Shown: positions 1-24,067 of the stretch, piece by piece | Layout of the letters: every line of letters begins with the position of its first letter | Numbering within the stretch: position 1 is the first letter of the stretch | NCBI GenBank assembly: GCA_963813075.1 | Contig: CAWEXU010000030.1 | Span: 384,001 to 448,000, forward strand | Direction of reading: 5' to 3' | DNA length: 64,000 nt | Source of the DNA: Methanotrichaceae archaeon | Lineage (GTDB): Archaea > Halobacteriota > Methanosarcinia > Methanotrichales > Methanotrichaceae | Position numbers and translations under genes: made by a program | Notes under the pieces: generated by a model | What the model saw: only the letters and a program-made list of their open reading frames with translations | Database searches by the model: none | What the model was told of the DNA's origin: nothing

Positions 1-13
1 CAAAGATGACAAT

Positions 14-1213
14 CTATCTAAATAATTTTATAATATTTTCAGAAAATCTGCTGCCTGCTTCCTCAATATCGCCTAAAGAAAAAGTGGCACTCATCACTCG
101 AATGTCTCCCCATTTTTCATCTAGAGGCCGCTCCAAATCCACCGGATAAACAAGAATTGCATCCCTGCATCCGTTCGCAATGGCGTAGGATACCACCTGA
201 TAGATATCGCCATTGGATGGAGCACCAACCTTATACTTGGTGTCCATGATGCATATGCATTTATGATGGGGCTCTTCATAGAGAAGCAAATCAATTGTGA
301 TTATCCTTTTCTGCCTAGGATCTACAATCTTATTCTTCTGGGCTTCAATTGAGTATCCCTTCATGGGATGCGCTTTGAGCCATTCCGCCACGAATCGCTC
401 ATAAAGTCGGGACATGTCTACTACGAAGGGGATCATCTCCCTTTTTCCGACTCTAAATTCTGGGCCCAGGTGCTCCAGGAACAATCTGCAAAGGGCATGC
501 ATCGGCCTGTAGTCGTCATTCAGGCGGTTGTAGTGCCGACCCTGGCAAGCTTCAGGGCCACAAGGCACGGGTTTAGCAAAAGATAACAGCCTTCGATAAG
601 CTTGAGATACGAAGGGCAGCGAGTGCTCGGTACAGAGTCCGCTGCGAAGCAGCTGCCAAAGTGTCCATGCCAGAATGCGGTTGTCATCAACATCGGATGT
701 GTGCTCCTCGAAGTGGCATTTGAGATTCACTTCCCAAGGCCTGATACAGGCATTCTTCAGGTCTATTCGTCCTCGAACGCATGAGATATGATCTGATCTG
801 GGCAAATAGGAGTGATAGAATCCTTGCATGCTCCGATCCAGCACCCTGTGAGCCAGGATATTTGCCATTCGGTCGTAGAAGTCCTCAATAGTATCGCAGT
901 TTAATAGTGCCTTGTCAGACAACTGGAAGCTAGTGAGGTTGTAAGCATATTCCAGCATCCTGAATAGATCTCTGATTTGAATTCCTGGCTTGGGAAGCAA
1001 TCTCAAACCGATATCAGAGGTCAGGGGAATATACCCCACCCATCCCTGGGATTTTAGCCTCCATTTGGAGCCAGGAAGGAAGGAGGTCTCCTCTACGGTT
1101 ACCTTATCGCCATGTCTCTGCTTGATTAGTTCAGCTGCTTCTATAGGCAGCTCTTCCCGGCTAACCTCTACGGGGATGAATTCTGGGAGTTCGATAACGA
1201 TCCTGGTGTTCAT
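14..1213 (-). CDS. mcrC: McrC-family restriction endonuclease subunit
   Basis: McrC-like motifs (GWVGYI, FRMLEYAY, VRGRID, DM..LYERFV, C-terminal ID..DTKYK..DIYQVVSYA PD-(D/E)xK). The start at 1213 overlaps the mcrB stop (ATGA). Confidence 0.92.
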   Translation of the reverse strand: MNTRIVIELPEFIPVEVSREELPIEAAELIKQRHGDKVTVEETSFLPGSKWRLKSQGWVGYIPLTSDIGLRLLPKPGIQIRDLFRMLEYAYNLTSFQLSDKALLNCDTIEDFYDRMANILAHRVLDRSMQGFYHSYLPRSDHISCVRGRIDLKNACIRPWEVNLKCHFEEHTSDVDDNRILAWTLWQLLRSGLCTEHSLPFVSQAYRRLLSFAKPVPCGPEACQGRHYNRLNDDYRPMHALCRLFLEHLGPEFRVGKREMIPFVVDMSRLYERFVAEWLKAHPMKGYSIEAQKNKIVDPRQKRIITIDLLLYEEPHHKCICIMDTKYKVGAPSNGDIYQVVSYAIANGCRDAILVYPVDLERPLDEKWGDIRVMSATFSLGDIEEAGSRFSENIIKLFR

Positions 1214-7790: not shown

Positions 7791-7981
7791 TAGCACTACC
7801 TCTCCCTGTACAATAGTCCGGGTATTTTCGTTGTTAATCCTGGGTGAAGAGATAGATATCAATCCATTGGTCTTCGGTTGAGAGATGATCAGTTGAGGAT
7901 TCGAAGGGCCTTTCAAAGCTCGGGCCATGATTGGTTCACTCCAATTTATCTTCAAGGTTTAAAAATGTAGTAAAATCCAAA

Positions 7982-8236
7982 ATGTGGTTAAATCCAAAGA
8001 TTTTAAGGAACCTCTTAGCATCTCCTTTTTATCCTGGCAGGATGTATCGATTTTCCATGTTCCTGCCTGGAGAGGATTACAGGGAATCCTTTCGCAAAGA
8101 ATGCCAATTCGCTATGGAGAGGAAGGGCAACATATTGGATATCGACGGCAGCGAAGCTGTGGAGGAACTGGCCCGGTCCCTGGAGAAAGTAGGGATAGCA
8201 AAGGTCAAGAAAGATAGCATCAAGTGGAAGCGATGA
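7982..8236 (+). CDS. Small hypothetical protein or gene fragment
   Basis: Protein-like C-terminal half, ends 9 bp before the AEC gene; no recognisable motif. Confidence 0.3.
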   Translation: MWLNPKILRNLLASPFYPGRMYRFSMFLPGEDYRESFRKECQFAMERKGNILDIDGSEAVEELARSLEKVGIAKVKKDSIKWKR

Positions 8237-8245
8237 GGACCGGCC

Positions 8246-9169
8246 ATGGCTTTTGAAACAACTCTCACCACCATGATCATCTTCTTTTTCATCCTGGCGG
8301 TGGGTTTTGTAGCCGGAAAATTAGGAATCATCAAGCAGGAGTTCATGGGGAGCTTCTCGCAGATGATCACGAAGATCTTTCTGCCCGCACTCATCTTCTA
8401 TTCAACCACCAGCAGCACAACGCGCCAGATGGTGTTCGAAAACTATTGGATTCTCATTCTGGCTGCGGGGTTCTATTTCCTGATCGCTGTTGTCACCTGG
8501 TCCTTAGCGCGAATCATGCGCATTCCGCACGACAAAGACCGCATTTTCCAGTTTGCGTTCATTTTCGGTAACACGGCATTTGTGGGTATGCCGTTGCTCG
8601 CAGCGGTATTCCCCGATTATGGGCTGTTTTTCATGTGTCTTTTTTCCATCGTCGATCAGTTGCTGTTTTGGACCTTTGGCATTTGGCTTTCAACAGCGCG
8701 CGACAGGCAAACGGCTCGCTTCAACCCAAAGAAGTTGCTCACACCCAACATCATCGCCATCCTTTTAGCGCTTGCATTTGTTCTGCTGGATATTCTGCTG
8801 CCGAGCATCATCAATAATGCCCTGGGCACCATTAGCAAGGCCACCGGTGCCTTGTGCATGCTCTATCTGGGGGCGATGATTTGCTTTTCCGAATTCGGTA
8901 CTGTGCTCAAGCGTGCCGAGGTGTACGTGGGCATTGCGGTCAAGATGGTTCTGCTGCCCATTGCCGTAGGTCTGCTGCTCATGCAAACGCCGCTGCCCTA
9001 TGAGATGGTCGCCTCCATGACCCTGGTCATGGCCCTTCCAGTCATGACGGTGGTGCCCATGATAGCCTCCGCAAATGGGCACGAAGGAGACTATGCCACG
9101 GGTATTGCCGTGGTGTCGTTTATAGCGTGTGTGGTTACCATTCCGCTGGTTGCCTTTGTGGTTCTCTAG
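8246..9169 (+). CDS. AEC (auxin efflux carrier) family transporter
   Basis: ~10 hydrophobic segments, LPALIF, FGNTAFVGMP and C-terminal TIP motif typical of Mem_trans/AEC. Confidence 0.88.
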   Translation: MAFETTLTTMIIFFFILAVGFVAGKLGIIKQEFMGSFSQMITKIFLPALIFYSTTSSTTRQMVFENYWILILAAGFYFLIAVVTWSLARIMRIPHDKDRIFQFAFIFGNTAFVGMPLLAAVFPDYGLFFMCLFSIVDQLLFWTFGIWLSTARDRQTARFNPKKLLTPNIIAILLALAFVLLDILLPSIINNALGTISKATGALCMLYLGAMICFSEFGTVLKRAEVYVGIAVKMVLLPIAVGLLLMQTPLPYEMVASMTLVMALPVMTVVPMIASANGHEGDYATGIAVVSFIACVVTIPLVAFVVL

Positions 9170-9416
9170 TGGAATGGGGATCAGTTCAACAGGAGGCCGA
9201 GCAAGAATGGCTGGGCTTTCTGGAACCGCAAAAGAACATTGCCGAGTAATTGAGAAATGGCTCATCAGCCCGATTTTAAAGGCGGACCACATCCCGTAGC
9301 TCCTCCACTCAGCTCCTGGCGATAGTGCGGGGCAAATTCTGTAGACTGGCAAAGCATAATGCTATAGTGCATGATGCACATAGTGCATTTAGGAATTGTA
9401 CTTGGGGGAATTGATT

Positions 9417-9914
9417 ATGCGTTATCAGCTGAAGAACAAACTATTCAGCATCGGCGGCGATGCGATGATCCAGGACGCCAGCGGGCGCGACCTGTTATTT
9501 GTGGATGGAAAAGCCATCAGCCTGGGACGGCGCTTAGAGATCAAGGACTTGCAGGGTAATGTGGCTAGCGACCATCCAGCAGCAGTTGATTGCCCTGACG
9601 CCCACCTTTGAGATTCACCAGCGTGGCGAAGTTCAGCGCCAAAATTTCCATGAAGCTGCTCTCGCTGCGCGACCGGCTGAAGATCGACGTGCCCGGCAAC
9701 GACGACCTGGAAGCGCGCGGCGATATCTTCCACCATGAGTACGGGATCTTCCGCGGCAGTCGCGAGGTGGCGCATATCTCGAAGGCGTGGATTGCCCTGA
9801 GCGACACCTACGGCATCGATATCGACGACGACCAGGACCAGGTGCTCATTCTGGCCTGCGCGGTGGTGATCGACGAAATTCTCGACATGCGCCAGAGCGG
9901 GACATTAGAATTAA
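9417..9914 (+). pseudogene. LURP-one-related (Tubby C-terminal-like/scramblase) gene, frameshifted copy
   Basis: Paralogue of 10221-10715 with indels near 9560-9630 and at the C-terminus; may partly be sequencing error. Confidence 0.8.
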
Positions 9915-9984
9915 ACGGAAGGCATGTTTTAAAGCCGCTCCGTTTTGTTTTCTTCATGCTGTTCGAGACGAGATTTGCGCTCCT

Positions 9985-10026
9985 GGCTTTCGGGCATCTC
10001 CATAGGGTTGCTCGCATGGCCGCAGG
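9985..10026 (+). repeat. GC-rich palindromic repeat R, copy 0 (5' half only, truncated at duplication junction)
   Basis: GGCTTTCGGGCATCTCCATAGGGTTGCTCGCATGGCCGCAGG. Confidence 0.85.
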
Positions 10027-10220
10027 AACCGCAAAAGAACATTGCCGAGTAATTCAGAAATGGCTCATCAGCCCGATTTTAAAGGCGGACCACATCCCGT
10101 AGCTCCTCCACTCATCTCCTGGCGATAGTGCGGGGCAAATTCTGTAGACTGGCAAAGCATAATGGCTATAGTGCATGATGCATATAGTGCATTTAGGAAC
10201 TGTACTTGGGGGAATTGATT

Positions 10221-10715
10221 ATGCGTTATCAGTTGAAGGACAAATTATTCAGCATCGGCGGCGATGCGATGATCCAGGACGCCAGCGGGCGCGATCTATT
10301 ATTTGTGGATGGAAAAGCTATCAGCCTGGGACGGCGCTTAGAGATCAAGGACTTGGAGGGCAATGTGGTGGCGAGCATACAGCAGCAGTTGATTGCCCTG
10401 ACGCCCACCTTTGAGATTCAGCAGCGTGAAGGATTCAGCGCCAGGATTTCCCTGAAGCTGCTCTCGCTTCGTGACCGGCTGAAGATCGACGTGCCCGGCA
10501 ACGACGACCTGGAAGCGCGCGGCAATATCTTTCAGCATGAATACGGGATCTTTCGCGGCAAGCGCGAGGTGGCACATATCTCGAAGGCGTGGATCTCCCT
10601 GGGCGACACCTACGGCATCGATATCGACGACGACCAGGACCAGGTTCTCATTCTGGCCTGCGCGGTGGTGATCGACGAAATTCTCGATATGCGCCAGAAG
10701 GCGGATTTTGATTAA
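10221..10715 (+). CDS. LURP-one-related / Tubby C-terminal-like protein
   Basis: MRYQLKDKLFSIGGD..VDGK..GNIFQHEY..AHISKAWISLGDTYGIDI..LILACAVVID pattern characteristic of the family. Confidence 0.88.
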   Translation: MRYQLKDKLFSIGGDAMIQDASGRDLLFVDGKAISLGRRLEIKDLEGNVVASIQQQLIALTPTFEIQQREGFSARISLKLLSLRDRLKIDVPGNDDLEARGNIFQHEYGIFRGKREVAHISKAWISLGDTYGIDIDDDQDQVLILACAVVIDEILDMRQKADFD

Positions 10716-10785
10716 ACGGAAGGCATGTTCCAAAGCCGCTCCTTTTTGTTTTCTTCATGCTGTTCGAGACGAGATTTGCGCTCCT

Positions 10786-10867
10786 GGCTTTCGGGCATCT
10801 TCCATAGGGTTGCCGCATGGCCGCAGGGCGCGGCGGGCGGGCGCTCGCATGCGCGGCGGGGCTGCCA
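10786..10867 (+). repeat. GC-rich palindromic repeat R, copy 1
   Basis: GGCTTTCGGGCATCTTCC..GGGTTGCCGCATGGCC..GGCGGGCGGGCGCTCGCATGCGCGGCGGGGCTGCCA. Confidence 0.88.
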
Positions 10868-10978
10868 TCGGGGGCCAGAGGGCGATGGGAGTGCAAAGGT
10901 TCTTATTCAACACAGCCAAACATATCTGAATGGAGGCGTGATCAGTTGGTTTGCTCAGATAACCTGGAGGTCAAAAAT

Positions 10979-11125
10979 ATGATGTCACCTGTCGTTAATG
11001 CTGTAAAGGCTAACTCTGAGACAGGCAAAGAGTTCATCGAGGGCATCAGAGAGGGCCTGGAGGATTTTGCTGAGGGCCGCTGTAAGGTCTTCAAGGATGC
11101 CGATGAGCATTGGCCTACCTGCTAA
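10979..11125 (+). CDS. Putative RelB-like antitoxin (~50 aa), copy 1, frameshift near C-terminus
   Basis: EFIEGIREGLEDFAEGRCKVFKDADE, GGAGGT SD; paralogous to 12440-12592 and 15259-15411; followed by a RelE-like remnant. Confidence 0.65.
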   Translation: MMSPVVNAVKANSETGKEFIEGIREGLEDFAEGRCKVFKDADEHWPTC

Positions 11126-11139
11126 AACCCTGATTTATC

Positions 11140-11439
11140 GAATTTTGATCCTTTAAGGCATCTAGGCCCCTCCTTCCAAGTCATTTTCATAAGCAATTCA
11201 AGAAGCTGACGAAAAAGGATCTGCTTGGGCAAAGGTTTGGGAAGACAGACCCAGAAACGATATGTGAAAATCCCGAAATAGGCGGACCCAAAAGCCACGG
11301 CTAGAAGGGCCTTCAGAGGCGACCTATGTCAGACCCTGTTGTGACCATTTACGGCGTACTTCGGCATATTTTGCCTACGTGTTTTGAACATAGTCAGATC
11401 ATCATACATAAAGGCGTATGCAATGTGCAGTGCATCTAA
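11140..11439 (+). pseudogene. Degenerate RelE/ParE-like toxin remnant
   Basis: Fragments in shifting frames (SHFHKQFKKLTKKD, ICENPEIG, DHH..KAY) resemble RelE; lies directly after the antitoxin. Confidence 0.5.
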
Positions 11440-11658
11440 TGAAATAGTCGAAAGCACATTAGACATTGAAGCTCCGAATTGGCCTGCTAGCTAACCACTC
11501 GCAACAGGTAGCGCGTTAGCCCCGAAGCGCCAGCTCGCGGCACCTATGAAGAAATCGAGATGAAATCAGTCGGCTGCTGTCACCTTAACTCGGTCTCTCT
11601 GCAACTGCGATGACATCTAGCTGATGGTCTATCTTTGACAGAGGTTACTCTGACGATT

Positions 11659-11737
11659 GGATTTCTGGCATCTTCCGCAGGGTTGCCCGCATGGCCGAGG
11701 GCGCGGGCGGGTCGCTCGCATGCACGCGGGGCTGCCA
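11659..11737 (+). repeat. GC-rich palindromic repeat R, copy 2
   Basis: GGATTTCTGGCATCTTCCGCAGGGTTGCCCGCATGGCCGAGGGCGCGGGCGGGTCGCTCGCATGCACGCGGGGCTGCCA. Confidence 0.88.
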
Positions 11738-11883
11738 TAACCCCGGGCCGGGGGACAAACTATGAGGACATGCCGGATCCGAAACGCATGAAAGGAGCTT
11801 CCAACTTACTGAAATGGCCAGGGCAAAAAACTGGTGGGATTTCTGGCGATAGGAATTGATGCCAAAAGATGAGTTGATCAGTC

Positions 11884-12126
11884 GTGTCGTTCTCTTTGAA
11901 GATGCTGCGCCCGGCCAAGAAAGAACTTGACAAGATGAATAAGACCCGGGCGCAAAAGATCTATAACCACATCGAGCAGCTTAAGAGAGAGCCATTTCGA
12001 CCAAGCCCAGGGATGAACATTGATAAAGTGGCAGGCAAACAGAAGCATCCAGCCTACCGCTTGAAGATCGGACGAATTCGGGTTGAGTATTTCGTAGTAA
12101 GAGGATATACAAGAGGAGACCAATAA
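11884..12126 (+). pseudogene. RelE-family toxin, copy lacking 59 nt at the 3' end
   Basis: Near-identical to 14645-14920 up to RVEYFV, then the segment encoding DGQVIVIFNIFMKKRKSDYR is missing. Confidence 0.8.
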
Positions 12127-12130
12127 TATT

Positions 12131-12325
12131 ATGATGGCCAGCAGCAAGACCAGATTACCTAAAGACGAATCTCTATCCGAGAGGGATTTCGAAGGCGTGA
12201 TATCCGAAGGCGAAGAGACCGAGTGCGCAGATAAGATTTGGGAGTATTATGAGAGGCATTTGGATGAGCTTGAGGACCTGGATGAATACGCCAAGAAACG
12301 CGGTCTTGTGAAACACGCAATTTAG
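12131..12325 (+). CDS. Small acidic protein, putative antitoxin downstream of relE
   Basis: 64 aa, acidic, AGGAG SD, duplicated at 14951-15145. Confidence 0.6.
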   Translation: MMASSKTRLPKDESLSERDFEGVISEGEETECADKIWEYYERHLDELEDLDEYAKKRGLVKHAI

Positions 12326-12439
12326 AAATCTCGTAATTTTAGTAATCAAAGAAAATTTTGGAATTCCTTCCTTGGAGACGAGCGCTAATAAGGGCATGAT
12401 CAGTCGGTTTGCTCAGACTAGCCGGAGGTCAAGGATCTG

Positions 12440-12592
12440 ATGACTCCAGTGGTCGAGCCAGCAAAGGCTGACTCTGAGGCAGGTAAGGAGTTCATCGAAG
12501 GGATCCGAGAGGGCCTGGTGGACTTTGCTGAGGGCCGCTTTATGGTCTTCAAGGATGCAGATGAGCTATTGGCCTGTTTGTTGAGCCATTGA
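12440..12592 (+). CDS. Putative RelB-like antitoxin (50 aa), copy 2
   Basis: MTPVVEPAKADSEAGKEFIEGIREGLVDFAEGRFMVFKDADELLACLLSH; below the ORF-track cutoff; GGAGGT SD. Confidence 0.65.
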   Translation: MTPVVEPAKADSEAGKEFIEGIREGLVDFAEGRFMVFKDADELLACLLSH

Positions 12593-12654
12593 TATTTCCT
12601 ATTTTGCTCCCTCGGATCTTCTGTAAGTTTTATCGGTAATAGCTCTTCGAGGTT

Positions 12655-12728
12655 GGCTTTTGGGCATTCTTCTCCAGCTTGCCCGCAGGCGCGCGCGGGC
12701 GAGCGCTCGCATGCATGCGGGGCAGGCA
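12655..12728 (+). repeat. GC-rich palindromic repeat R, copy 3 (followed by G-rich tail to ~12815 and a degenerate 5' half at 12838-12870)
   Basis: GGCTTTTGGGCATTCTTC..TTGCCCGCAGGCGCGCGCGGGCGAGCGCTCGCATGCATGCGGGGCAGGCA. Confidence 0.85.
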
Positions 12729-12934
12729 CTGGGGGGCCGGGAGGGCGAATGGACGGGGAAGGGGGCTGGGCCTGGGATCTGTGGCCGGGCGGCAGTGGGA
12801 TGCGGGATGCAGGGGGTAGGAGCGCCAGTGCTCCTATGCCTTCGGGCCTTCCCAGGGTCGCAAGGGCATGAAGGAAATTAGCTCACAGATTCTCATCGAC
12901 AGTTTCATATACAAAAATTGTAAACATAAGTATC

Positions 12935-13162
12935 ATGTCAACTAATGTTTACAGCATCCGGATAGATGATCGTGTTCGCCGGATGATGGATGAGATGAAT
13001 GACGTCAACTGGCAGGTCGAGATCAGACAGTCAGTGGAGAGGATGGTCCGGGAGAAGAAGAAGCAGAAGCTATTGGCGGAGGCAAAAGAGCTATGGGAGG
13101 ACCAGATTCCTAATAAAATTGGGGCGGCAGAGATGATCAGGGAGGATCGAGATGCCAGATAA
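12935..13162 (+). CDS. vapB: VapB-type (RHH) antitoxin
   Basis: YSIRID..VNW..EIR and C-terminal AAEMIREDRD typical of archaeal VapB; overlaps vapC. Confidence 0.85.
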   Translation: MSTNVYSIRIDDRVRRMMDEMNDVNWQVEIRQSVERMVREKKKQKLLAEAKELWEDQIPNKIGAAEMIREDRDAR

Positions 13163-13562
13163 GGTGGTCCTTGATTCAAGTGTAATCGCTGCTATGTTCT
13201 TTAGAGAAGATGCTTCAACGCGGGCATTAGAAGCAGCTGCAAAATCCGACTTGATCACCCTGGATCTTGCTATTGCTGAGGTTGGGAATGTGGCCTGGAA
13301 GCAAGTCGCCTTCTGTGGTGGGGATAAAGACCTGACATTAGCGGCCTATAAGAAATGCCAGAGTTTCATCTCAGAGGCGTGTGAACTCATCCGGGCTGAG
13401 GATCTGACCATGGAGGCATACAATATCTCTTTTGAGACCGGGACTGCTTTCTACGATTCGCTCTTCCTGGCAGCCGCAGAGGCAAGGCAAGTGCCACTCT
13501 TGACTCTGGACAGAAAGCTGTATGAGAAGGCCAAGCCAACCCGGAATGTGCAGCTGATTTAG
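13152..13562 (+). CDS. vapC: VapC PIN-domain toxin
   Basis: VVLDSS, EVGN, YDSLFLA and LLTLD acidic PIN motifs. Confidence 0.92.
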   Translation: MPDKVVLDSSVIAAMFFREDASTRALEAAAKSDLITLDLAIAEVGNVAWKQVAFCGGDKDLTLAAYKKCQSFISEACELIRAEDLTMEAYNISFETGTAFYDSLFLAAAEARQVPLLTLDRKLYEKAKPTRNVQLI

Positions 13563-13743
13563 GAGGCAGAACTGCAGAGTTGCTTCTCTGCAAATTGTTC
13601 AAGGATGCCGGAGTCACCGCGGCCTTTGAACAGACCAAATCGTGAGCGGGCTGTGGAGCTAGCAACTCCTGGCACCCGGACTGCTCTATATTGAGGGGTG
13701 ACAGACGATGCGTGGGCGATTATCCTTCCATGCAGGCGCCTTT

Positions 13744-13782
13744 GCGCGCGCGGGCGGGCGCTCGCATGCACGCAGGGCTGCC
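13744..13782 (+). repeat. GC-rich palindromic repeat R, copy 4 (3' half clear, 5' half degenerate from ~13712)
   Basis: GCGCGCGCGGGCGGGCGCTCGCATGCACGCAGGGCTGCC. Confidence 0.85.
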
Positions 13783-13854
13783 TCGGGGGGGCAGGGCATC
13801 AATTCTAATTCAGAAGGACGTGAATACGACATTGTAGTAGGGCGAAATTCCGCT

Positions 13855-14067
13855 TTAATGCGATGGGCGTTCTTTCTTCGCCCGATCGAAGATCTCTTCA
13901 ATGCTCTGCCCTTCGTATAGCCTTCTGGAGATCTCGACATAGTCGGTGGGCTCACGGTGAAACATACCCAGAAACTTATGTGCTCTGGCCGGCCCAAGGG
14001 CTCGGTAGAGGGCGTCAAGGCCCCTTGCCCTTATCTCAGCGTCGTCCATTTCGCCTACTTCGGACAT
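13855..14067 (-). CDS. 70-aa protein resembling antitoxin-like partners of PIN toxins (orphan here)
   Basis: EIRARGLDALYRALGP..KFL..DY..SIEEI pattern; TTTTATA box and GAGGT SD upstream; partial second copy at ~19952-20156. Confidence 0.65.
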   Translation of the reverse strand: MSEVGEMDDAEIRARGLDALYRALGPARAHKFLGMFHREPTDYVEISRRLYEGQSIEEIFDRAKKERPSH

Positions 14068-14644
14068 TATTTTACCTCACGTCCGATATAGTGTAGTCCG
14101 CCTCAATATAAAAGGCAGACGCAAGGTGCAGTGCATCCTTTGAGGAATGCTGCTAATTGGAAAGCCCGTAGCCTAGACAGATCTCATACGTGATGGATGA
14201 CTCTCGATTGGTTTGACATTATCGACTCGACCATTTATGGAAAAGTCGTGGCTGCATCCAGACATTGGAACTCCTGATTAGTCTGCGCGTAAGCCCCGTA
14301 GCGCCGACTCGCGGCACCCTGGAAGAAAGAGTGGAGATCTAGTCCTCGCCTGAATCGGACGAGTCACATCTGCAGTTGAACGACGTTAGCATATCTTTTG
14401 TTTAGCACAGAAGATCTAACAACGTTTTCGGAGTCCCGCGCGGTTAAACGCGCTGGGGTGACGGGGCCCACTCCAGGCCGTGGCGGCCCCCCTAACCCCG
14501 CGTCCGCGGGGAACAAATTATGAGGACATGCCCTCGATCCCTAAACGCATGAAAGGAGCTTCCAATTACTGAAATGGGCCAGGGCAAAAAACTGGTGGGA
14601 TTTCTGGCGATAGAAATTAATGCTAAAAGATGAGTTGATAAATC

Positions 14645-14920
14645 GTGTCGTTCTCTTTGAAGATGCTGCGCCCGGCCAAGAAAGAACTTGACAAGATGAA
14701 TAAAGAGCAGGCGCAAAAAATCTATAACCACATCGAGCAGCTCAAGAGAGAGCCATTTCGACCAAGCCCAGGGATGAACATTGATAAAGTGGCAGGCAAA
14801 CAGAAGCCTCCAGCCTACCGCTTGAAGATCGGACGAATTCGGGTTGAGTATTTCGTAGATGGGCAAGTGATCGTGATTTTTAATATCTTCATGAAGAAAC
14901 GGAAATCTGATTACAGATAA
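14645..14920 (+). CDS. relE: RelE/ParE-family toxin (intact)
   Basis: AKKELDKM..KIYNHIEQL..P..YRLKIGRIRVEY..IF..KRKSDY. Confidence 0.85.
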   Translation: MSFSLKMLRPAKKELDKMNKEQAQKIYNHIEQLKREPFRPSPGMNIDKVAGKQKPPAYRLKIGRIRVEYFVDGQVIVIFNIFMKKRKSDYR

Positions 14921-14950
14921 GAGGATATACAAGAGGAGACCAATAATATT

Positions 14951-15145
14951 ATGATGGCCGGCAGCAAGACCAGATTACCTAAAGACGAATCTCTATCTGA
15001 GAGGGATTTCGAAGGCGTGATATCCGAAGGCGAAGAGACCGAGTGCGCGGATAAGATTTGGGAGTATTATGAGAGGCATATGGACGAGCTTGAGGACCTG
15101 GATGAATACGCCAAGAAACGCGGTCTTGTGAAACAGGCAATTTAG
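14951..15145 (+). CDS. Small acidic protein, putative antitoxin downstream of relE
   Basis: Duplicate of 12131-12325. Confidence 0.6.
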   Translation: MMAGSKTRLPKDESLSERDFEGVISEGEETECADKIWEYYERHMDELEDLDEYAKKRGLVKQAI

Positions 15146-15258
15146 AAATCTCGTAATTTTAGTAATCCAAGAAAATTTTGGAAATCCCTTCCTGGAGACG
15201 AGCGCTAATAGGGGCATAATCAGTCGGTTTGCTTAGACAACCGGAGGTCAAGGATCTG

Positions 15259-15411
15259 ATGTCATCTGTCGTCAAGCCAGCAAAAGTTGACTCTGAGGCA
15301 GTTAAGGAGTTCATCGAGGGCATCCGAGAGGGCCTGGAGGACTTTGCTGAGGGCCGCTGTGTGGTCTTCAAGGATGCCGATGAGCTATTGGCCTGTTTGT
15401 TGAGCCATTGA
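15259..15411 (+). CDS. Putative RelB-like antitoxin (50 aa), copy 3
   Basis: MSSVVKPAKVDSEAVKEFIEGIREGLEDFAEGRCVVFKDADELLACLLSH. Confidence 0.65.
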   Translation: MSSVVKPAKVDSEAVKEFIEGIREGLEDFAEGRCVVFKDADELLACLLSH

Positions 15412-15473
15412 TATTTCCTATTTTGCTCCCTCGGATCTTCTGTAAGGTCTATCGGTAATAGCTCTTCGAGGTT

Positions 15474-15551
15474 GGCTTTTGGGCATTCTCCTCCAGCTTG
15501 CCCGCATGGCTGTGCGCGCGGGCGGGCGCTCACATGCACGCGGGGCAGCCA
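15474..15551 (+). repeat. GC-rich palindromic repeat R, copy 5
   Basis: GGCTTTTGGGCATTCTCC..TTGCCCGCATGGCTGTGCGCGCGGGCGGGCGCTCACATGCACGCGGGGCAGCCA. Confidence 0.88.
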
Positions 15552-15752
15552 CTCAGAGAGTCGGGAGGGCGAAAGAGGGGGAGGAGAGCCATGTGGTCTG
15601 TGGCCGGGTGGCAGTGGGATGCGCAGATAGAGGGGGCGGTGCAGATGTGGGCGGAGGCTGGCGAGTTTGGCAATGGGATGGTACCTGAGCAGTTGCAGAC
15701 AGGGCATCGGTTTCGATTCGAGATTCCCAAATTCCATGCTTTCACCATAAAG

Positions 15753-16892
15753 CTAAACTACTGTCCTAATTTTCTCTATCGCCCAGTTAAATACGAGCAA
15801 GAACTTCTCCAGAGCCTCTCCATTCAGTGTCGATAATGGAATAGACGGGCCTTTGTCGACGGCGTCAATCGAAAGATTGATTCCTGGGATTTCATTTAAC
15901 CTATTGAGCAATTCTTTGCGCAAATCCTCGCTATCAAATGGCGGTTTAGTTTTGAGGTAATAGAAATAAGTCTCGATTCCTCCTGTTGTCCAGACTGCAA
16001 AAAGATAGTGCGATGCACCCTTGCTCTCTATAATAGGAGTAAAGGAGCCTCGTGTCTTACCATTGCCCCACCATATCCTATCTGTATTTTGCTTCGCCCA
16101 GGCGAGAATTTTTTTTGCCGATTCGATTCCATCGGAGTTAGATCTGGATGCAAGCTCCTGGAAAAATGATGGCTCATCCCATTTGCCAACATTAGAAAGA
16201 GATTTCCTTGCGTTTGCCACAGCAGTCTGGCCTATTACTCTCGGAACCAATGTTTTTGATTTTTCCCCACTATACTGTCTAACCTCTACAGCCAGAACCT
16301 CTGCCGGATTCATCTGTCCATTTAGGAATTCGACGATCTGTTGAAGCTCTTTTGGTATCTCATCTGCCACAAAGAGAAGCCTTATGTGGCCCGCCTGCAG
16401 ATTGATCTTAACCTGGCTCCAAAATTTGTCTACAGGATCTATGTCTTCTGGAGTTGCTTTGATCAGGCTTAAGATCATCTTATTTGGATCTTCTCCAGCT
16501 TCATTGGCCGAAGCTTCAAACACAGCACGGATCGACTCCACAGGCCAATGAGCGACGCAATTGGCTGCATAATCCAGCATCTGCCCGACAACCTTGCGTC
16601 TGGTGTCGTTATTATTGCTCTGCTTCACCTCGACTAATGTAGGTACTGCATCTTGGTCCAGGAATAAGTGATCCAGATACCATCTATCCGATCCGCCATC
16701 GTCTTCTGGCACCCCCATTTCCCTGGACACATGAAGCCATCGTCTGGGATTAGCTTCATCGATTTGATCCCCCGCCAGCAATTCAGGATGCTTTTCCAAG
16801 AGGGACTGAAGGATGTATTCACTCTTGTAGGGTTCCTTATCCATCGATTCAAGTCTGCCATCATCCGATAGTGAATATATTTTATCAGCCGT
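15753..16892 (-). CDS. NucS/restriction-endonuclease-like PD-(D/E)xK protein with C-terminal accessory domain
   Basis: E..LQ.LL, RE, LDHLFLDQD..LVEVK and VVGQMLDYAA motifs. Protein-like sequence begins at ACG-GCT-GAT (16892); start uncertain. Confidence 0.7.
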   Translation of the reverse strand, partial: TADKIYSLSDDGRLESMDKEPYKSEYILQSLLEKHPELLAGDQIDEANPRRWLHVSREMGVPEDDGGSDRWYLDHLFLDQDAVPTLVEVKQSNNNDTRRKVVGQMLDYAANCVAHWPVESIRAVFEASANEAGEDPNKMILSLIKATPEDIDPVDKFWSQVKINLQAGHIRLLFVADEIPKELQQIVEFLNGQMNPAEVLAVEVRQYSGEKSKTLVPRVIGQTAVANARKSLSNVGKWDEPSFFQELASRSNSDGIESAKKILAWAKQNTDRIWWGNGKTRGSFTPIIESKGASHYLFAVWTTGGIETYFYYLKTKPPFDSEDLRKELLNRLNEIPGINLSIDAVDKGPSIPLSTLNGEALEKFLLVFNWAIEKIRTVV

Positions 16893-17017
16893 GTCGCATC
16901 CCCGCCTGTATTGCCCGCAGCAATAAAAGGTTAGCTTGGCATTACTTGAATCTGTTGGGAGAGCCAATAGCTCCAACGTACTTACGCAAGTTATTCGCTC
17001 ATCTTACGAAGTGAGAC

Positions 17018-17137
17018 AGCGGCAGCCCACCCCAAAGGATGAGGTATGCTTCAGGCCGTGCTTCGGTTAGACGGAATCCAGAAACAATCGGGATCGTAGG
17101 TCCACTGGATTTAAAGACCAGATAAAATTGTGAATCT
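17018..17137. other. Structured non-coding element, copy A (homologous to reverse complement of 31759-31892)
   Basis: 29/38 ungapped identity in the core (17021-17058 vs 31886-31849) plus two further collinear stem-loops. Confidence 0.6.
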
Positions 17138-17354
17138 GTATCGTATTGCGAGGAGGACCTGTTAATAACCTTAAGAAAACATGAAAACAGGGCGAGGGTC
17201 GGTTTCCGCTACGGAATATTCCTGCAAATTTTTACAGCAAATCGTCACGCTACCGGAAAATTAGAGCGAAAGAGTAAAAACATTGATGTATTCGTTATGG
17301 GGACCATCAACTTTAAGTTAATCGGAATCCTCCTATGGGAATGGAGGGAATCGA

Positions 17355-17543
17355 GTGGAACGACAACATGTAATTTCCAGTAATATAAAATCAGTAGGAT
17401 ATGATCAAATTTCAAATATTTTAGAAATAGAGTTCGATAATGGGCGTACATATCAATATTTTGATGTGCCCAATCAAATTTATTTGTCCTTAATCGAAGC
17501 AGCTTCAAAAGGAGAATATTTTCATAATATTATAGAAATCTAG
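17355..17543 (+). CDS. KTSC domain protein
   Basis: SSNIKSVGYD..LEIEF.NG..YQY.DVP..Y..L..A.SKG.YF is the KTSC consensus. Confidence 0.92.
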   Translation: MERQHVISSNIKSVGYDQISNILEIEFDNGRTYQYFDVPNQIYLSLIEAASKGEYFHNIIEI

Positions 17544-17581
17544 ATTTGAATTCAAGCAATTCTTTAAAGGAGGATTGAGTA

Positions 17582-19587
17582 TTGATAATAGAATCTATTT
17601 ATATAAAAAATTACAGATCTGTTTTGGAAGAGACACTTTATTTCGATAATTTAACTGCACTAGTCGGCGCCAATGGCTCTGGAAAGTCTTCTTTCTTACA
17701 TGCCTTAGAGTTGTTCTATGGCCAATCGCCAAAAGTTGAGAGTGAAGATTTCTATAATGAGGATATAACAAAGGATATCATAATTGCCATAACATTCAAA
17801 GAGCTAAAAGAAGAAAAAGAAATATTTTCTAGATATATCCAAGATGATAGATTAAAGGTAGAACGGATCTTTGCTTGGAATAATGGAAAAGTAATAGCCA
17901 AATATCATGGATTTAGTCTCCAAAACCCTCGGTTCAAAGCATTGCGCGAAGCCTTTGAGATCAAGGATAGGGGCAAGAAAGCCAAAGAAGAATATGAATT
18001 CTTGCGTACAGATAGTGATTATATGGATCTGCCTCCTTGGTCATACTTAAAGACGGCTCAAGAGAATATAAAATCGTGGGAAGAAGAAAATCAAAAAAAA
18101 TGCGATCGCCATCGAGATGATGGCCAGTTCTTTGGATTTAATGAAGTCGGATTAGGTTATCTAGGAAAGTTTACTAAGTTCCTGTTTATCCCAGCTATAA
18201 GGGATGCATCTTCTGATTCGGTAGATGGAAAGGGTTCAGTAATTACGTATCTCATGGATTTAGTTGTCCGAAGTGTGTTGGCCCAAAAAGATGGTGTTAA
18301 AGAACTAAAAGAGGAAACACAAAGAAAATACCAAGAAATTATGGATCCGACTAAATTACCAGAGTTAAACCTATTAGCAGAGAGGATGACAGGAACCTTG
18401 AGAACTTTTGTTCCTGATGCCAAAGTGGAGCTCAAATGGCTTAGCTTAGAACAAATTGAAATACCTTCGCCAAAAGCGGAAGTTAAGTTAGTAGAAGACG
18501 GCTATCCTTCTGCCGTAGCAAGAACTGGACATGGCCTGCAGAGAGCATTCATTTTAACTATGCTGCAACATTTGGCACTGGCACAAACAGTCGAAAAGCA
18601 GTCCGAGACAGAAGCGAGTGAAGATAAATCTGAGATGGATAACAAATTACCCAATCTCGTTTTGGCCATAGAAGAGCCTGAGCTTTATCAGCATCCTAAT
18701 AGACAGCGACATTTTGCTAAGATATTAATGCAATTATCTTGCATGAAGATTCCAGGAGTAGCCGAAAGGACTCAAATTATATATGGAACTCATTCTCCAT
18801 TATTCGTAGGGATTGACCGGATTGAACAAATTAGGCTACTGAGAAAAATAGGCATTGCAGATGATAGGCCCAAAATTTCAAAGATATTTAGTACCGACTT
18901 AGACGAAGTAGGTAGAAGAGTTTCGGAGATAGAAGGTAAGCCAACAGCCGAAATGTATACGAAGCAGACGACATTGCCTCGGCTTAAGACCATCATGACT
19001 CCATGGATGAATGAAGGTTTTTTTGCAGATGTTGCGATCCTGGTCGAAGGAGAAGATGACCGAGCAGCCATATTAGGTATAGCCAAAGCAAAGGGCTATG
19101 ATCTTGAAGGTAATGGTTTCTCAGTGATTCCTTGCGGCGGCAAGACAAATATTAGTAGACCATATATTATTTTTAATAATTTAAATATTCCACTATATAT
19201 AATTTGGGATGGAGATTTCGGTAAAGGGGAAACGCAAGGCATATGCAAAGAATGTGGACGTCCACTGGACAAAAAGCCAGATCCAAAGGAAAACCATAAG
19301 CTTCTCAGATTAATGGGTAAGAAAGAAGAGGATTGGCCTGAATATATAGAAGAGAATTTTGCCAGCTTTAAAACAGAATTGGAGAGCACCTTGGAAGACT
19401 GAAATTGGTCATGAAGTTTTTGAGAAATGTCTCGGAAGATGCCAAGTTGAATTTTGTATTGCAAAACGAAAGCATGCAATAAAGATATCCAAGTGTAATC
19501 ACGACGATTTTGAAATATGCTAAAGATGAAGGCAACACCAGTAAGTCTCTGGATGAAATATTGGATAGGATCATGGCATTGAAATAG
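17582..19587 (+). CDS. OLD-family ATP-dependent nuclease (ABC ATPase + TOPRIM), frameshifts near 19398 and 19485
   Basis: IKNYRS, GANGSGKS, GHGLQR, IEEPELYQHP, THSP, LVEGEDD and WDGD motifs; C-terminus continues in other frames to TAG at 19587. Confidence 0.88.
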
Positions 19588-19951
19588 ATTAAAGGAACAG
19601 GATGCTAAGCTTGCAGGTATTCAGTTGAGGGATAGCTATATAGATGAGTGATCAAGACCTGCTATCTTCAGAAGGCTTTTATGAGTTGTGGATCGGATCG
19701 TAGCATCCCTCTAGCTAAGAGAGTAACAAGGCCCTGAAGATCCTGGATCGCATAGAGCTTAGCTACTAAAGCAAATAACATGAGTTCCTCTGCGGTCAAG
19801 CTATCCAAGTAAGGCAAGCGTATACCTTTAAGAACTCCATAGCTTTATGAAGACTCTTAACTTGATGGGAGGATATTCCTTATGAAAGAGTTGGCGAGCT
19901 ATGAAGGAGGCCACGAGGATGGGTGTTGAGATGAAAGAAGATTTTTATGTT

Positions 19952-20156
19952 GGCGTCATTTCCTAATTCAGAAGGACTTGAATATGGCATTGCAGGAGGG
20001 CGAAATCCCGCTTCAATGCGATGTGCGTCTTTCTTCGCCCGATCAAAGATCTCTTCAATGCTCTGCTCTTCGTATATCCTTCTGGAGATCTCGACATAGT
20101 CGGCAGGCTCACGGTGAAACATAATCAGAAATTTATGGGCTCTGTTGGACCGGGGC
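19952..20156 (-). pseudogene. 5'-truncated copy of the 70-aa ORF cassette (13795-14000)
   Basis: RAHKFL.MFHREP.DYVEISRR.YE.QSIEEIFDRAKK plus shared downstream non-coding sequence. Confidence 0.8.
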
Positions 20157-20192
20157 ACGGAAATCTCGTGTAATTTCAATCTTTTTAAAATA

Positions 20193-20532
20193 TTAGTATT
20201 CTATGATTTCCTCACCATAAAAATTTTTTCGCACATCCATATGTGTCTTAAATATTTGACATGAATTCTTTATTTCTTGCTCTATTGCAAGGATCCGGTT
20301 AATTAATTCATTCTCAAAGATACAACCTATCATTAGCATTTCCATAGTTATGTTTTGTTCGTGCTTTTCATCTATTTGTATTGAAGACAATATCGATCTT
20401 TTTTAATTTATATTTATTCATTAATTCGGTTTCTTCTTCGGTTAATTCCGCTCTTGCAGACAACGAATACAATATTTGTCTTTTCCACAGAATATTACTT
20501 TCAGATTGATTCTTTATAAGAGATAGCTTCAT
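20193..20532 (-). CDS. Small hypothetical protein, split by a frameshift near 20385
   Basis: Two overlapping AT-rich ORFs that read as one ~110-aa protein ending FYGEEIIEY. Confidence 0.55.
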
Positions 20533-20608
20533 GCGATCCTCTCTGTATATTTTCATTTTATTTTATATAATATTGGTTCCTCAGATTCCAGCCGGGTGTA
20601 AAGGAGAG

Positions 20609-22260
20609 CTATTCTTCAGGCATGATGATTTTAGCCTTGACTCCTACTTGGTCAAGCAAGTAGAGCAGCCCGCCACCATCAATTAGTTCAAGAGGCTTAT
20701 CCTTTGCGAATTCATATGCATCAGGACCGTACCCGCTGGTTGTCACAATAATACCCTTGCTCGCCCCTTCATTCATCATTGTGCCATATAGATCACGCAC
20801 TGCAGAAACACCCACGGTATTTTTATATCTCTTGGCTTGAATTACCACTTTGCCGCCAAGGATAGGGCGAATGTCAAATGCTACTGCATCTACTCCACCA
20901 TCTTTTGATGCGCGGGTCAGCTTACTCTCTAGCCCCATCTTACCAAATAGATTACTTGTCAGATTTTCAAATTCACCGTAGGTTAAATCCATCAGGTTTG
21001 GCCTTGAATCAATGCCGCTTAAAACATCACCTTGTTCGATAAAGCGCTTATCAACCATATCAAATTCGACAACAGGCTTTACAGGCAATTGCTCATCAGG
21101 ACGAGATGACACCTGTGCACCAAGATTACGTAGACATACCAGCTTATCAATCCGACTTAGATTTAATTCATTAAAGCTATCTTTCGTTGTTCTTACAGAA
21201 ATTAAGCAGGGGTGAGCGTCTTTTCCAGTTGCTGGATCAGTCGTTGTGACAAAACCGTTAAACGTGACAACCTGGATGTGATTGCCTTGATCAGCTTCCA
21301 AAATTTCATGGATGGTACGAATGGTAATTGCAGCTACAATATCTTGATACAATGCTTTCATTTCGCTTGGCTTTCTGGCTTTTCCACAACATCGTCTTTT
21401 GATTTGTTGTATTTGTATTCTGCTACATTAGGGATAACATCGATCCACGGTAACTCGTATTCGACTACCATCTCTTTTGATTCCGGCGCATAAGCCAGTC
21501 GGAAACTCTTTGTAAATCCTTCAGGGTATTCAGAGCGTTCAAGTACCATTGTCGTATAGGTCTTTATGGCAGATGGATCTCCAGATTTATATGCAGCCTC
21601 TAGCTCACTTACTTCTTGATCGCGTTGCTGCACCTTTCTCAAAAATGCTTCGTGATTGCTATCGTATTCTGTTTTTAATTGCTCAAGTTTAGACTTCTTC
21701 TCGCATTCAAGTGCGTCATATGCTTTGACTGCATTATCATATTCAGCTTCTGCTGCTTGAGTTTCACGCTGATGTCGGCCTTTCATGCCCAAAGCGTTTT
21801 CAAGGAATCCCATTGATTTAACATTCTTCAAATAATCTTGCTTATCTGGGCGAGGAACTACCATTATTAATTCTTGCGGCGGTGTAAAAGGCGGAAATTC
21901 GTCTTTCACTCTCAAGGAGTCGAATTCAATAGTATCATCAATGTCGAGTGTATGTTCTAAGATTTTGCTTAGCTCTAAAATATAATTAGCATTTGCTTCA
22001 TTTTTCTCTTCAGTTTCTTCGATTCGGCCAGCAACATATTGCTGCTTAGCTTCTTTCTCCAGTTGCTTTCTTTCCTTCTCTGATTGGGCCATCTGGCGTC
22101 TTGCCGCTATCTCAGCTTGTTTCCTTTGCCGTTCTGCTGCCTTGAGCTGAGCTGCTTGTGCTTTTAATAGTCTTTTGCGATTGGTTTCTGCTTCACGACT
22201 AGCCCGAGCCGCCTCACGAGCAACGGCTTTCATCCAATTTGAGGTGAAACTTTTAGCCAT
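20609..22260 (-). CDS. mrr: Mrr-like restriction endonuclease with N-terminal coiled coil, split by a frameshift near 21380
   Basis: C-terminal Mrr_cat motifs EFE, DGGVD, IQAKRY, VRDLYG, IVTTS and LIDG. Adding one C restores KPRKPSEMKALY. Confidence 0.85.
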
Positions 22261-22485
22261 AACTATAGCCCATCCGTCAGTCTATATGAGTTTCTGAGCA
22301 TATCAACGGATTTTCCTCTACGAAATGATGGTGAGATCTATCACACGAAAAAGCTTTCGATATAAATATGAGAATTTTCTCGTATTAACGCTCGCGAGCA
22401 AGACACAACATCTCACATAATTTGACTACTACTTGTGGGGCCGGCTAAAAATATCTAGACTCACCATTCATTCAATAAATAGTCT

Positions 22486-22857
22486 TTATGGAGCTCCAAT
22501 TGGGACTCCTACTATCTGTTCAAATGAAGCCGCGAAGATGATAAATCCTATAATTGTTGTTATGGCCCCCATAGCAGATACCGTGTAATAGATTATGCTC
22601 AAGTAACCTCTCCTATTCTCGCGTTTCCAGTGGTCATTAATGAAAGTAATCCCAAACATAATGAATAATCCAGCAACGACTCTCGCCTCAGGCCCGAGAT
22701 CTCTTACCTGCGACATGATTCCTATCCAGAAAATAGTGATCCATGCCAAAACTATCATTATTAGCTTAAATACTTCAATAACTGCAGTTACAGATTGTGA
22801 AGGAGCTTTGCTCGAATCCGGATCAGAAGATTCTTCCACGATATTCTCATTTGACAT
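22486..22857 (-). CDS. Hypothetical membrane protein (3 TM)
   Basis: Three hydrophobic segments; starts immediately after the tRNA 3' end. Confidence 0.55.
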   Translation of the reverse strand: MSNENIVEESSDPDSSKAPSQSVTAVIEVFKLIMIVLAWITIFWIGIMSQVRDLGPEARVVAGLFIMFGITFINDHWKRENRRGYLSIIYYTVSAMGAITTIIGFIIFAASFEQIVGVPIGAP

Positions 22858-22872
22858 GTCTTATAATATCTA

Positions 22873-22955
22873 TGCGGGGGACGGGAGTCGAACCCGCGAA
22901 CACCTTCGTGACAGGGTCCTAAGCCCTGCGCCTTTAACCACTTGGCAACCCCCGC
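22873..22955 (-). tRNA. tRNA-Leu (TAG)
   Basis: GCGGGGG acceptor stem, D-loop TGG, CAGGG-CTTAGGA-CCCTG anticodon arm, long variable arm, GGTTCGACTCC T-arm, discriminator A, no encoded CCA. Confidence 0.97.
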
Positions 22956-23197
22956 GCTTGCTATCGACTTTCTGATAATCTCGCCCTTGGTAGTACGGGA
23001 CTTGGCCTTCATTGCTTCGCGGTGGATAAAAACATATCGAAGCCAATGGATTATGGGGCTCTTCGCTATAATTGCGCGGGTAGTGTACTGCAGAAAATAT
23101 TCCTTTGTGCCTTCGTGCCTTTGTGGTGAGGCCTGAGCATCCCGATTTCACCCGAGACAAATAGGCACAAAGAAAAGAAAATAGGGCTCAACGCTAT

Positions 23198-23657
23198 CTA
23201 TCCTTCTGCGATCCCTTCAGGCCCGCCGCCCTTGCGCGCCCTCCTGGCCGCCGCTATCAGCTCTCTCATCTCCCCGGGGGAGAGATCGTGCCTGTGCTTC
23301 TGATCATCCCACTCCCGCCGGAAGGGATAAAAGTACTCATAAAGCTCCAGAATATCCCGGGACCAGAGAACCAATACCCTCTTCTATCACTGCCATCTTG
23401 ATATGCAGCGGCAGGATCTCGAAGATTCTCAGGTCGTACTTCTCGGAACGAAGATGGGAGACGAACTCCCTCCACAGCCCTGCCCTATCCTCTGCCTCCG
23501 GGGCCACCAGGCAGAGGTCTATGTCGCTATCCGGCCCGGCATCGCCCCGCGCCCAGGAGCCGTAGAGCAGCACTCCTAAAACCCTCTTCTCCCAGGAGGG
23601 CTCTGCCAGAAACTGCAGCTCTTTTCCTAGCCGTTCGCTAACGACCTCTCCAGCCAT
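23198..23657 (-). CDS. Minimal nucleotidyltransferase (MNT) antitoxin, +1 frameshift near 23372
   Basis: LYGSWARG..DSDIDL; corrected frame continues LELYEYFYPFRREWDDQKHR. Confidence 0.85.
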
Positions 23658-24067
23658 CCCTCCACCTCCTCTCCGAAGGCGACAATCCCGCCCTCCAGAT
23701 CCTTCATGCTCTGCATGGCTACAAGATCGTCTCTCCGATTGTACCTGTGGACCAGATGGTTGCGAAGGCCATTGGCCTCGATGAGAACCTCTCGGGACTG
23801 GGCGGAAAGAGCAGCGAGCCTTTCCAGGTTGCTGTAATCATCCTGAGATGTTATGCCCAGATCCTTGCACATCATCGCCACCAGATCCAGGCTGGCCTCT
23901 ACTGCCTCCTGAAAGGCTTTGTAGACTGCGAGCTTGGTCTTGTCGTCCTCTAAAAAATCGTCCTCGGAGACCTCCGCCAGCCACTCCTGCACCTGTCCCG
24001 CTCTCTTAAAAACCATATCCAGCTTATCTTTGTACCGGCAGGCTCTTTTTGCAGTGATGTGGATCAT
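23627..24067 (-). CDS. HEPN (DUF86/HepT-like) RNase toxin
   Basis: GLRNHLVHRY Rx4HxY motif; overlaps the MNT gene. Confidence 0.9.
   Translation of the reverse strand: MIHITAKRACRYKDKLDMVFKRAGQVQEWLAEVSEDDFLEDDKTKLAVYKAFQEAVEASLDLVAMMCKDLGITSQDDYSNLERLAALSAQSREVLIEANGLRNHLVHRYNRRDDLVAMQSMKDLEGGIVAFGEEVEGWLERSLANG

Follow-up and report, generated by a model that had tools for sequence, protein, structure and literature searches.

A degenerate non-attC repeat punctuates a strain-variable array of accessory modules near tRNA-Leu(TAG) in Methanotrichaceae

Integron attC sites end in RYYYAAC on one side and GTTRRRY on the other, and genomic islands anchored at transfer RNA (tRNA) genes are built by repeated integration. 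Here we describe a repeat termed R, which separates small accessory modules in a Methanotrichaceae archaeon; the window analyzed is a stretch of 64,000 nucleotides (contig C30:384001-448000; G, C, and L numbers are our own handles for genomes, contigs, and loci) of a 2.71-Mb genome, G000, in 31 contigs and 82.8% complete. Several described systems come close to it. Integrons and clusters of attC sites lacking integron integrases (CALINs), archaeal ones included, hold many toxin-antitoxin and defence cassettes whose order varies, and a CALIN may lack an integrase; Data S1 of the same study lists one Methanotrichaceae metagenome-assembled genome with two attC sites and no IntI (PMC9668308). For IS26 and the IS6 family, direct repeats flank cargo, and a unit of repeat plus cargo, excised by recA-dependent recombination, joins beside another copy (PMC7986276). 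In the T4-type phages RB49 and phi1, degenerate intergenic repeats named promoter early stem-loop (PeSL) elements mark hypervariable regions, where recombination inserts, deletes, and replaces accessory genes (PMC2839356). PeSL elements are units of phage promoter and terminator that cross over at varying points, and mini-circles were demonstrated by inverse PCR; in the accessible parts of that report the authors identify no dedicated recombinase, liken the process to integrons, and state that they had no evidence for it in cellular organisms (PMC2839356). No paper on R itself was found in a literature search that did not cover subscription journals.

The array is real: its modules are punctuated by a repeat and vary between strains. 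When all 31 contigs were searched with a five-copy profile (E ≤ 10), six matches were returned, all on the forward strand within window positions 9984-15554, and none elsewhere in G000. Five of the copies are full and one is cut off (starting at ~9985, 10786, 11657, 12653, 13715, and 15472; Table 1), and a 20-mer of the R core matched four times in the window against 0.01 expected. The first-pass annotation, made from the letters of the window, had described a co-oriented, GC-rich element recurring at ~9985-15474 and absent from the core genes, and the profile search agrees on both counts, with 6/6 copies on the forward strand and 6/6 at one locus rather than single copies in both orientations across the genome. 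What had been taken for a diverged copy at 14426-14491 is a different repeat, Q, found at four other places in G000 and in high copy number in five relatives. Because that element is not R, the interval between R5 and R6 is 1.77 kb, and the spacing of ~0.7-1.1 kb that had been given for the array fails there. R1 was truncated by duplication of the LURP module, whose right breakpoint falls inside the core. Among contigs assembled from four public runs, none spans the array and one bridges 7850-9269; the exact module order in the window lacks independent confirmation by these contigs. Public runs with small word shares were set aside.

Strong R matches (sequence profile, E ≤ 2.7e-5) were confined to 6 of 105 genomes of the family, all of one genus, probably Methanothrix, and an even draw of 151 genomes of the class yielded matches in that genus only. 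The expected clustering in co-oriented arrays extended to the relatives: 27 of the 31 strong matches lay in arrays and four outside, and the complete genome G005 (99% complete) carries five copies. A pattern scan of metagenomes produced 27 loci, several of which differ little from one another or from G005 and G027, with true R copies in 22 and several copies in 17; copies were co-oriented in 17/17 of the latter, barring one weak opposite match (E 0.25). The remaining five loci (L038, L041, L052, L054, and L057) held short pattern matches only and were rejected, and neither the weak BLAST matches in G006, G007, G015, G017, G021, G028, G034, and G036 nor the pattern matches in G009, G035, G068, G070, and G072 were R. 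Arrays were usually situated 2.5-13 kb 3' of tRNA-Leu(TAG), and in every locus with both R and the intact tRNA gene, R stood on its 3' side and pointed at it (12/12). In place of an intact tRNA, G016 has a 47-bp 3' fragment of tRNA-Leu(TAG) ~100 bp upstream of its first R.

Across 19 loci, module content recurred and module order varied, bearing out the proposal that cassette order and content differ between strains; gene order is not fixed. The window reads LURP-A-RelE91-vapBC-orphan-RelE91, where A denotes a 50-aa open reading frame (ORF) plus RelE123, and G005 reads A-peroxiredoxin/isochorismatase-vapBC-orphan. Other orders were vapBC-A (L056), vapBC...LURP-RelE91 (G079), and RelE91-LURP/ASCH (L043), and module A was found with five different left neighbours. 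The joints lie inside R: where pairs shared one flank only, similarity ended within -17 to +44 of the core anchor in 38/49, and contigs of the four public runs contained the joins R1-R5, R3-R4, R3-R6, and R2-R4 tail. Joints were also formed by other short repeats: by Q in R3 and, at the peroxiredoxin module of G005, by a surrounding 59-bp repeat.

To place the crossover, we analyzed 10 copies, each of which had a left parent and a right parent at ≥90%, with 5-22 discordant sites per triplet. The switch intervals, in core positions, were -6..2, 12..33, 13..14, 14..71, 21..22, 28..30, 41..71, 52..53, 52..58, and 76..81. They spread over ~85 bp, from core -6 to 81, and at most four of the 10 shared a point (within 5 bp), compared with at least seven of 10 in 150 simulated sets in which one site was fixed and noise was one- or three-fold. 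Junctions had been expected at a fixed position in R, and this expectation failed. Present-day joints are thus shown to be scattered, which is no proof that a fixed site never existed.

We think it probable that the array reflects homology-driven exchange of modules at decayed repeats, needing neither a dedicated recombinase nor a fixed cut site. Under this model, copies of R would have accumulated in head-to-tail order within the variable defence island that adjoins tRNA-Leu(TAG), with many accessory modules starting in the right part of an R and ending in the left part of one. Homology-dependent recombination between any two copies, on the same chromosome or with DNA of a related strain, would allow whole modules to be lost, duplicated, exchanged, or gained. 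Since the crossover would be free to fall anywhere in ~100 bp of shared sequence, a dedicated recombinase or fixed cut site would be superfluous. Host RadA or single-strand annealing may be the agent, circular intermediates would presumably form, and toxin-antitoxin modules may be over-retained by selection because losing them is costly.

Several observations weigh against homology-driven exchange. That R keeps one orientation, one main locus, and a well-conserved core points to selection or to some active process beyond plain recombination, and direct repeats favour deletion and exchange over inversion yet do not explain how R spread. R copies diverge by 10-30%, which should limit recombination. 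The joins in public runs come from short contigs placed at 88% likeness and may in part be mis-placed R variants, and some modules, such as vapBC inside G016, have no R at their ends. The triplets share parents and are not independent, with 5-22 discordant sites each, and gene conversion, which lay outside the simulation, could have blurred an originally fixed site. Finally, Xer-like integrases adjoin the tRNA in L035, L037, G005, and G027, and an integrase fragment adjoins R and S copies (S being a second array repeat, below) in G077 C8.

R is a degenerate, decayed non-coding element. With copies from other genomes included, it measures ~250-300 bp, its 55-bp core being preceded by a left arm that reaches ~100 bp at most and followed by a G-rich tail of at most ~150 bp; arm and tail are cut at different points in different copies, and the core is far better conserved. 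The ~80-bp palindrome of the first-pass annotation was therefore too short, arm and tail flanking the core, and its hairpin found no support, as none of 12 folds (six sites, both strands) outdid dinucleotide shuffles (z -1.50 to +1.49). The consensus fold had a covariation term of -0.01, and for the long bulged stem that had been proposed, 34-136 of 500 column shuffles scored as high in covariation across 51 copies. An attC end pair (RYYYAAC...GTTRRRY, 50-145 bp apart, either strand) was present at 0/60 R sites, as had been anticipated for this repeat, and on such sequence features the array is not an integron. The longest inverted match at the ends of the 14/14 full copies tested was ≤8 bp (7-8 bp, chance level), giving no terminal inverted repeats. 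R was rejected as a tRNA fragment or known RNA: Rfam found only tRNA over window positions 9000-24000, and a genome-wide blastn search of the array gave no tRNA match. A tie of R or Q to CRISPR repeats was likewise rejected, the CRISPR arrays found in G000 having AT-richer repeats that are unrelated by eye. A G4Hunter-type score of ≥1.2 was reached by 54/59 R copies compared with 13% of 12,882 genome windows, and the score exceeded that of a copy's own shuffles (p ≤ 0.05) in just 22/52; a G-quadruplex trigger at the G-rich tail is a lead only. A scan for bacterial-type signals, outside which archaeal promoters fall, gave 10 promoter-like sites against 5.5 ± 2.3 and four terminators against 6.5 ± 2.7, none typical of R.

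These properties bear on an integron-like alternative, in which a trans-acting recombinase or nickase recognizes the R core, branch migration or gene conversion scatters the crossover, and the repeats S, T, and U are sites of sister systems. We regard it as unlikely. The common orientation of all multi-copy loci, the constant direction of R toward the tRNA 3' end, a core better kept than the arms, a bulged stem in which 86% of cells can pair, and several junctions within core positions 12 to 33 argue for a dedicated system; the lack of a single crossover point and of covariation argues against one, as do the recombinase searches. R, S, or Q occurred at 0/10 integrase-centred loci, and in G005 the side of the tRNA that bears the array showed no recombinase. 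G027 has an integrase on the 3' side of its tRNA, of a family present in 33/59 genomes of the genus; 30 of these lack strong R matches, and a search at E ≤ 1e-40 did not find the family in G000, G005, or G016, which all carry R.

Searches for other recombinases gave a similar picture. The only tyrosine recombinase match in G000 is on a contig other than that of the array (C18:2077-3079) and seems to be divided between two ORFs; sequencing errors may account for many of the frameshifts in the assembly. No IntI emerged, the best TIGR02249 score among four matching integrase ORFs or fragments being 93.7 bits against a cut-off of 265; G000 is 82.8% complete, and an absent IntI is by itself compatible with a CALIN. 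Serine resolvases numbered zero in G000, G005, and G077, and no IS6 transposase exceeded the cut-off in five R-bearing genomes. An IS91-type search had no match, nor any in control genomes, and is not informative. Y1 transposases were discarded as partners, the nearest of seven matches in G000 being ~280 kb from the array, and so was IS110, for although one IS110 gene follows R-vapBC-R in G077 C10, 0/5 IS110 matches of G000 are on the array contig. Among the families searched, none tracks with R arrays, and the dedicated tyrosine or HUH recombinase envisaged earlier did not materialize. From the first-pass annotation's case for a different cassette system, the variable, co-oriented, non-attC array marked by R survives; the structured site, the fixed junction, and the dedicated recombinase found no support.

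Integrases near the tRNA lend some weight to another explanation, that a small integrative element repeatedly entered the tRNA-Leu island and left R behind as its relic end or origin region. The array would then be a pile of decayed insertions, with R now functionless and module shuffling a by-product. Small integrative elements with a Xer-like integrase were seen on the 5' side of tRNA-Leu(TAG) at L035 3636-4583, L037 2315-3244, and G005 C1:1484251-1487706; that of G005 is bounded by a 46-bp repeat of the tRNA-Leu 5' half and is absent from the window. A relic would account for the proximity of R to an integrase-hosting tRNA, the tRNA-Leu fragment just upstream of R in G016, arms cut at variable points, and a ~400-bp T repeat in G026 with short AT-rich internal repeats. 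We nevertheless consider it distinctly unlikely: no intact parent element was found, nor any R in viral contigs, plasmids, or phages or near the 10 integrase genes; R is not a piece of tRNA; S arrays, where their surroundings were read, are not close to tRNA or integrase genes; and for elements of this sort, ~1 kb holding one or two genes is a short spacing.

A few copies of R stand outside arrays (G077 C1, C8, C9, and C10; G027 C11), and these copies, together with Q, might point to a small selfish repeat, resembling a repetitive extragenic palindrome (REP) or a miniature inverted-repeat transposable element (MITE), that went into intergenic positions of an island variable beforehand and tolerates no other region. 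Q seems to be such a repeat, REP- or MITE-like and scattered in both orientations, and it sits in the same arrays as R. Further copies of Q in G000 are at C5:142594, C4:91257, and C17:133700 and 135011; it was detected in 15/59 genomes of the genus, five of which (G016, G027, G030, G077, and G079) have ≥14 matches and 24-54 candidates on both strands, often near small toxin-antitoxin or orphan genes. Y1 and IS110 transposases, moreover, are encoded in the genome. For R itself we hold this explanation to be very unlikely, given the 27/31 strong matches in arrays, the strict co-orientation, and chance-level inverted ends. The outlying copies carry pieces of array modules along, and no empty site was found for the two examined, whose flanks were mosaic with no clean site. 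One such unit, R-vapBC-R, was observed away from the tRNA island at L092 9980-12658 (G077 C10), followed by an IS110-family transposase.

Homology-driven exchange, our preferred reading, may apply beyond R, for the same layout was found with different repeats. Repeat S has a GC core and purine-rich tail like R and splits toxin-antitoxin and defence modules at another locus, with co-oriented copies in G000 (three, on C27), G072 (seven), G079 (six), G030 (three), G005 (two), and G077 (three to four). S arrays were noted at G000 C27:56408-57953, L090 5491-7955, L106, L107, L112, and L113. Judged by their translations, their modules are presumably vapBC, Fic-like, TIR-like, and other defence genes, and adjoin a putative CTP-synthase-like gene in G005, G030, and G072. 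Profile scores between R and S were weak (best E 0.004). Repeat T (G026, L117 2500-9950) comprises five co-oriented copies, which sit between two tRNA-Leu genes, 3' of tRNA-Leu(TAG). Repeat U forms pairs 3' of tRNA-Leu(TAG) with different cargo between, at L118 3004 and 4183 (G011) and at L122 8175 and 11005 (G072). A short GCATGCA-containing motif is common to R, S, and T and, like the shared layout, favours a dedicated system. R, S, T, and U might on that account be sites of an archaeal gene-capture system, in which a trans-acting enzyme nicks the GC-rich core, or a quadruplex in the tail triggers recombination, after which the host machinery exchanges toxin-antitoxin and defence modules; we give this a low probability.

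The modules between the R copies, and the defence genes that share their island, are listed in Table 1.

Table 1. Repeats, modules, and island genes in the window (positions in the 64,000-nucleotide stretch)
Feature	Position	Strand	Remarks
LURP-one module copy 1	9222..10024	+	frameshifted ORF ~9417-9914
R1	9984..10026	+	left arm and first ~13 nt of core
LURP-one gene copy 2, intact	10221..10715	+	Pfam LOR, E 9.5e-12
R2	10785..10890	+	tail shortened; joint from LURP to 50-aa antitoxin-like/RelE123 module
~50-aa antitoxin-like ORF and RelE/ParE-type toxin (RelE123)	10979..11530 (end approximate)	+	
R3	11657..11775	+	R/Q hybrid: R core, then right end of repeat Q
RelE91, 64-aa ORF, and 50-aa ORF, first copy	11884..12592	+	RelE91 shortened
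R4	12653..12842	+	long G-rich tail
vapB (NF050799) and vapC (PIN)	12935..13562	+	family matches
R5	13715..13795	+	vapBC-type left arm; tail shortened
70-aa orphan ORF	13855..14067	-	no family match
Repeat Q	14303..14540 (core ~14441-14524)	+	dispersed, GC-rich, distinct from R
RelE91, 64-aa ORF, and 50-aa ORF, second copy	14645..15411	+	Pfam ParE_toxin 23.6 bits, cut-off 23
R6	15472..15676	+	full-length core and tail; left arm back to ~15415
407-aa putative nuclease	15753..16976	-	weak PADLOC PDC-S11
OLD-family ATPase/TOPRIM defence gene	17582..19402	+	same island
Mrr-type restriction genes	20609..22260	-	same island
tRNA-Leu(TAG)	22873..22955	-	island anchor; R points to its 3' end

The module list of the first-pass annotation was confirmed by family matches for LURP-one (Pfam LOR), ParE/RelE, and VapB with VapC; the 50-, 64-, and 70-aa "antitoxins" had no family match, that label resting on size and position. 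Identity between the two LURP copies is 93% over 809 bp, and between the two RelE91/64-aa/50-aa modules 91-92%. The 59-bp deletion that shortens the first RelE91 copy recurs in an independent run. The RelE123 gene of the window is broken by several indels, which may be decay or assembly error, and has an intact 123-aa form in G005, G016, and L061. A protein atlas look-up of the 70-aa orphan returned unnamed clusters only, and a second, broken copy of the orphan region (89% to 13795-13987) stands without R at window 19952-20144. The gene for the 407-aa putative nuclease comes after an R copy in L036 too, and R-array cargo elsewhere includes OLD nucleases, SIR2, HNH, methylases, ASCH, NUDIX, and secreted proteins. 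Upstream of a KTSC gene, a short repeat at window 17255-17336, which also flanks the G005 peroxiredoxin module, is a frequent loose-end point in the public runs and a second junction hotspot. At window 14-3600, beyond a P-type ATPase, McrBC-type restriction genes extend the defence region.

Cassette arrays are normally read as integrons, and here an integron-like layout has seemingly been built and reshuffled by degenerate repeats alone in a cellular archaeon, which until now had been demonstrated in T4-type phages. The layout is seen with three or more further repeats within the genus and may be a general means by which these methanogens vary anti-virus and stress genes. Where an array looks "integron-like" yet lacks attC, the crossover should be tested before a new recombinase is invoked. 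If R, S, T, and U did belong to a trans-acting system, it would be a purpose-built, integrase-free analogue of integrons in acetate-using methanogens.

Set against the described systems, the R array shares with integrons and CALINs the co-oriented repeats between short, mostly co-directional genes, the variable order, and the toxin-antitoxin and defence cargo. Unlike them, it has no attC ends, supported fold, fixed crossover, or IntI, and R is 250-300 bp long with variably cut arms. Directly repeated elements flank cargo as in IS26 pseudo-compound arrays; in contrast to IS26 and the IS6 family, R encodes no transposase and has no terminal inverted repeats, and the five genomes searched gave no IS6 transposase above the cut-off. 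The array resembles tRNA-anchored islands in its position 3' of a tRNA and in the Xer-like integrases and tRNA fragments of some strains, but the repeat is no tRNA fragment, and its occurrence does not follow that of the integrases. R differs from PeSL in being GC-rich, chromosomal, and archaeal, with neither promoter nor terminator signals that exceed those of shuffles in the bacterial-type scan, and is known here from contig sequence, whereas PeSL mini-circles were demonstrated. Like PeSL, R repeats are degenerate, flank accessory genes in a hypervariable region, and have exchange points that vary within the repeat, and the array is most likely an archaeal, chromosomal variant of repeat-mediated modular shuffling.

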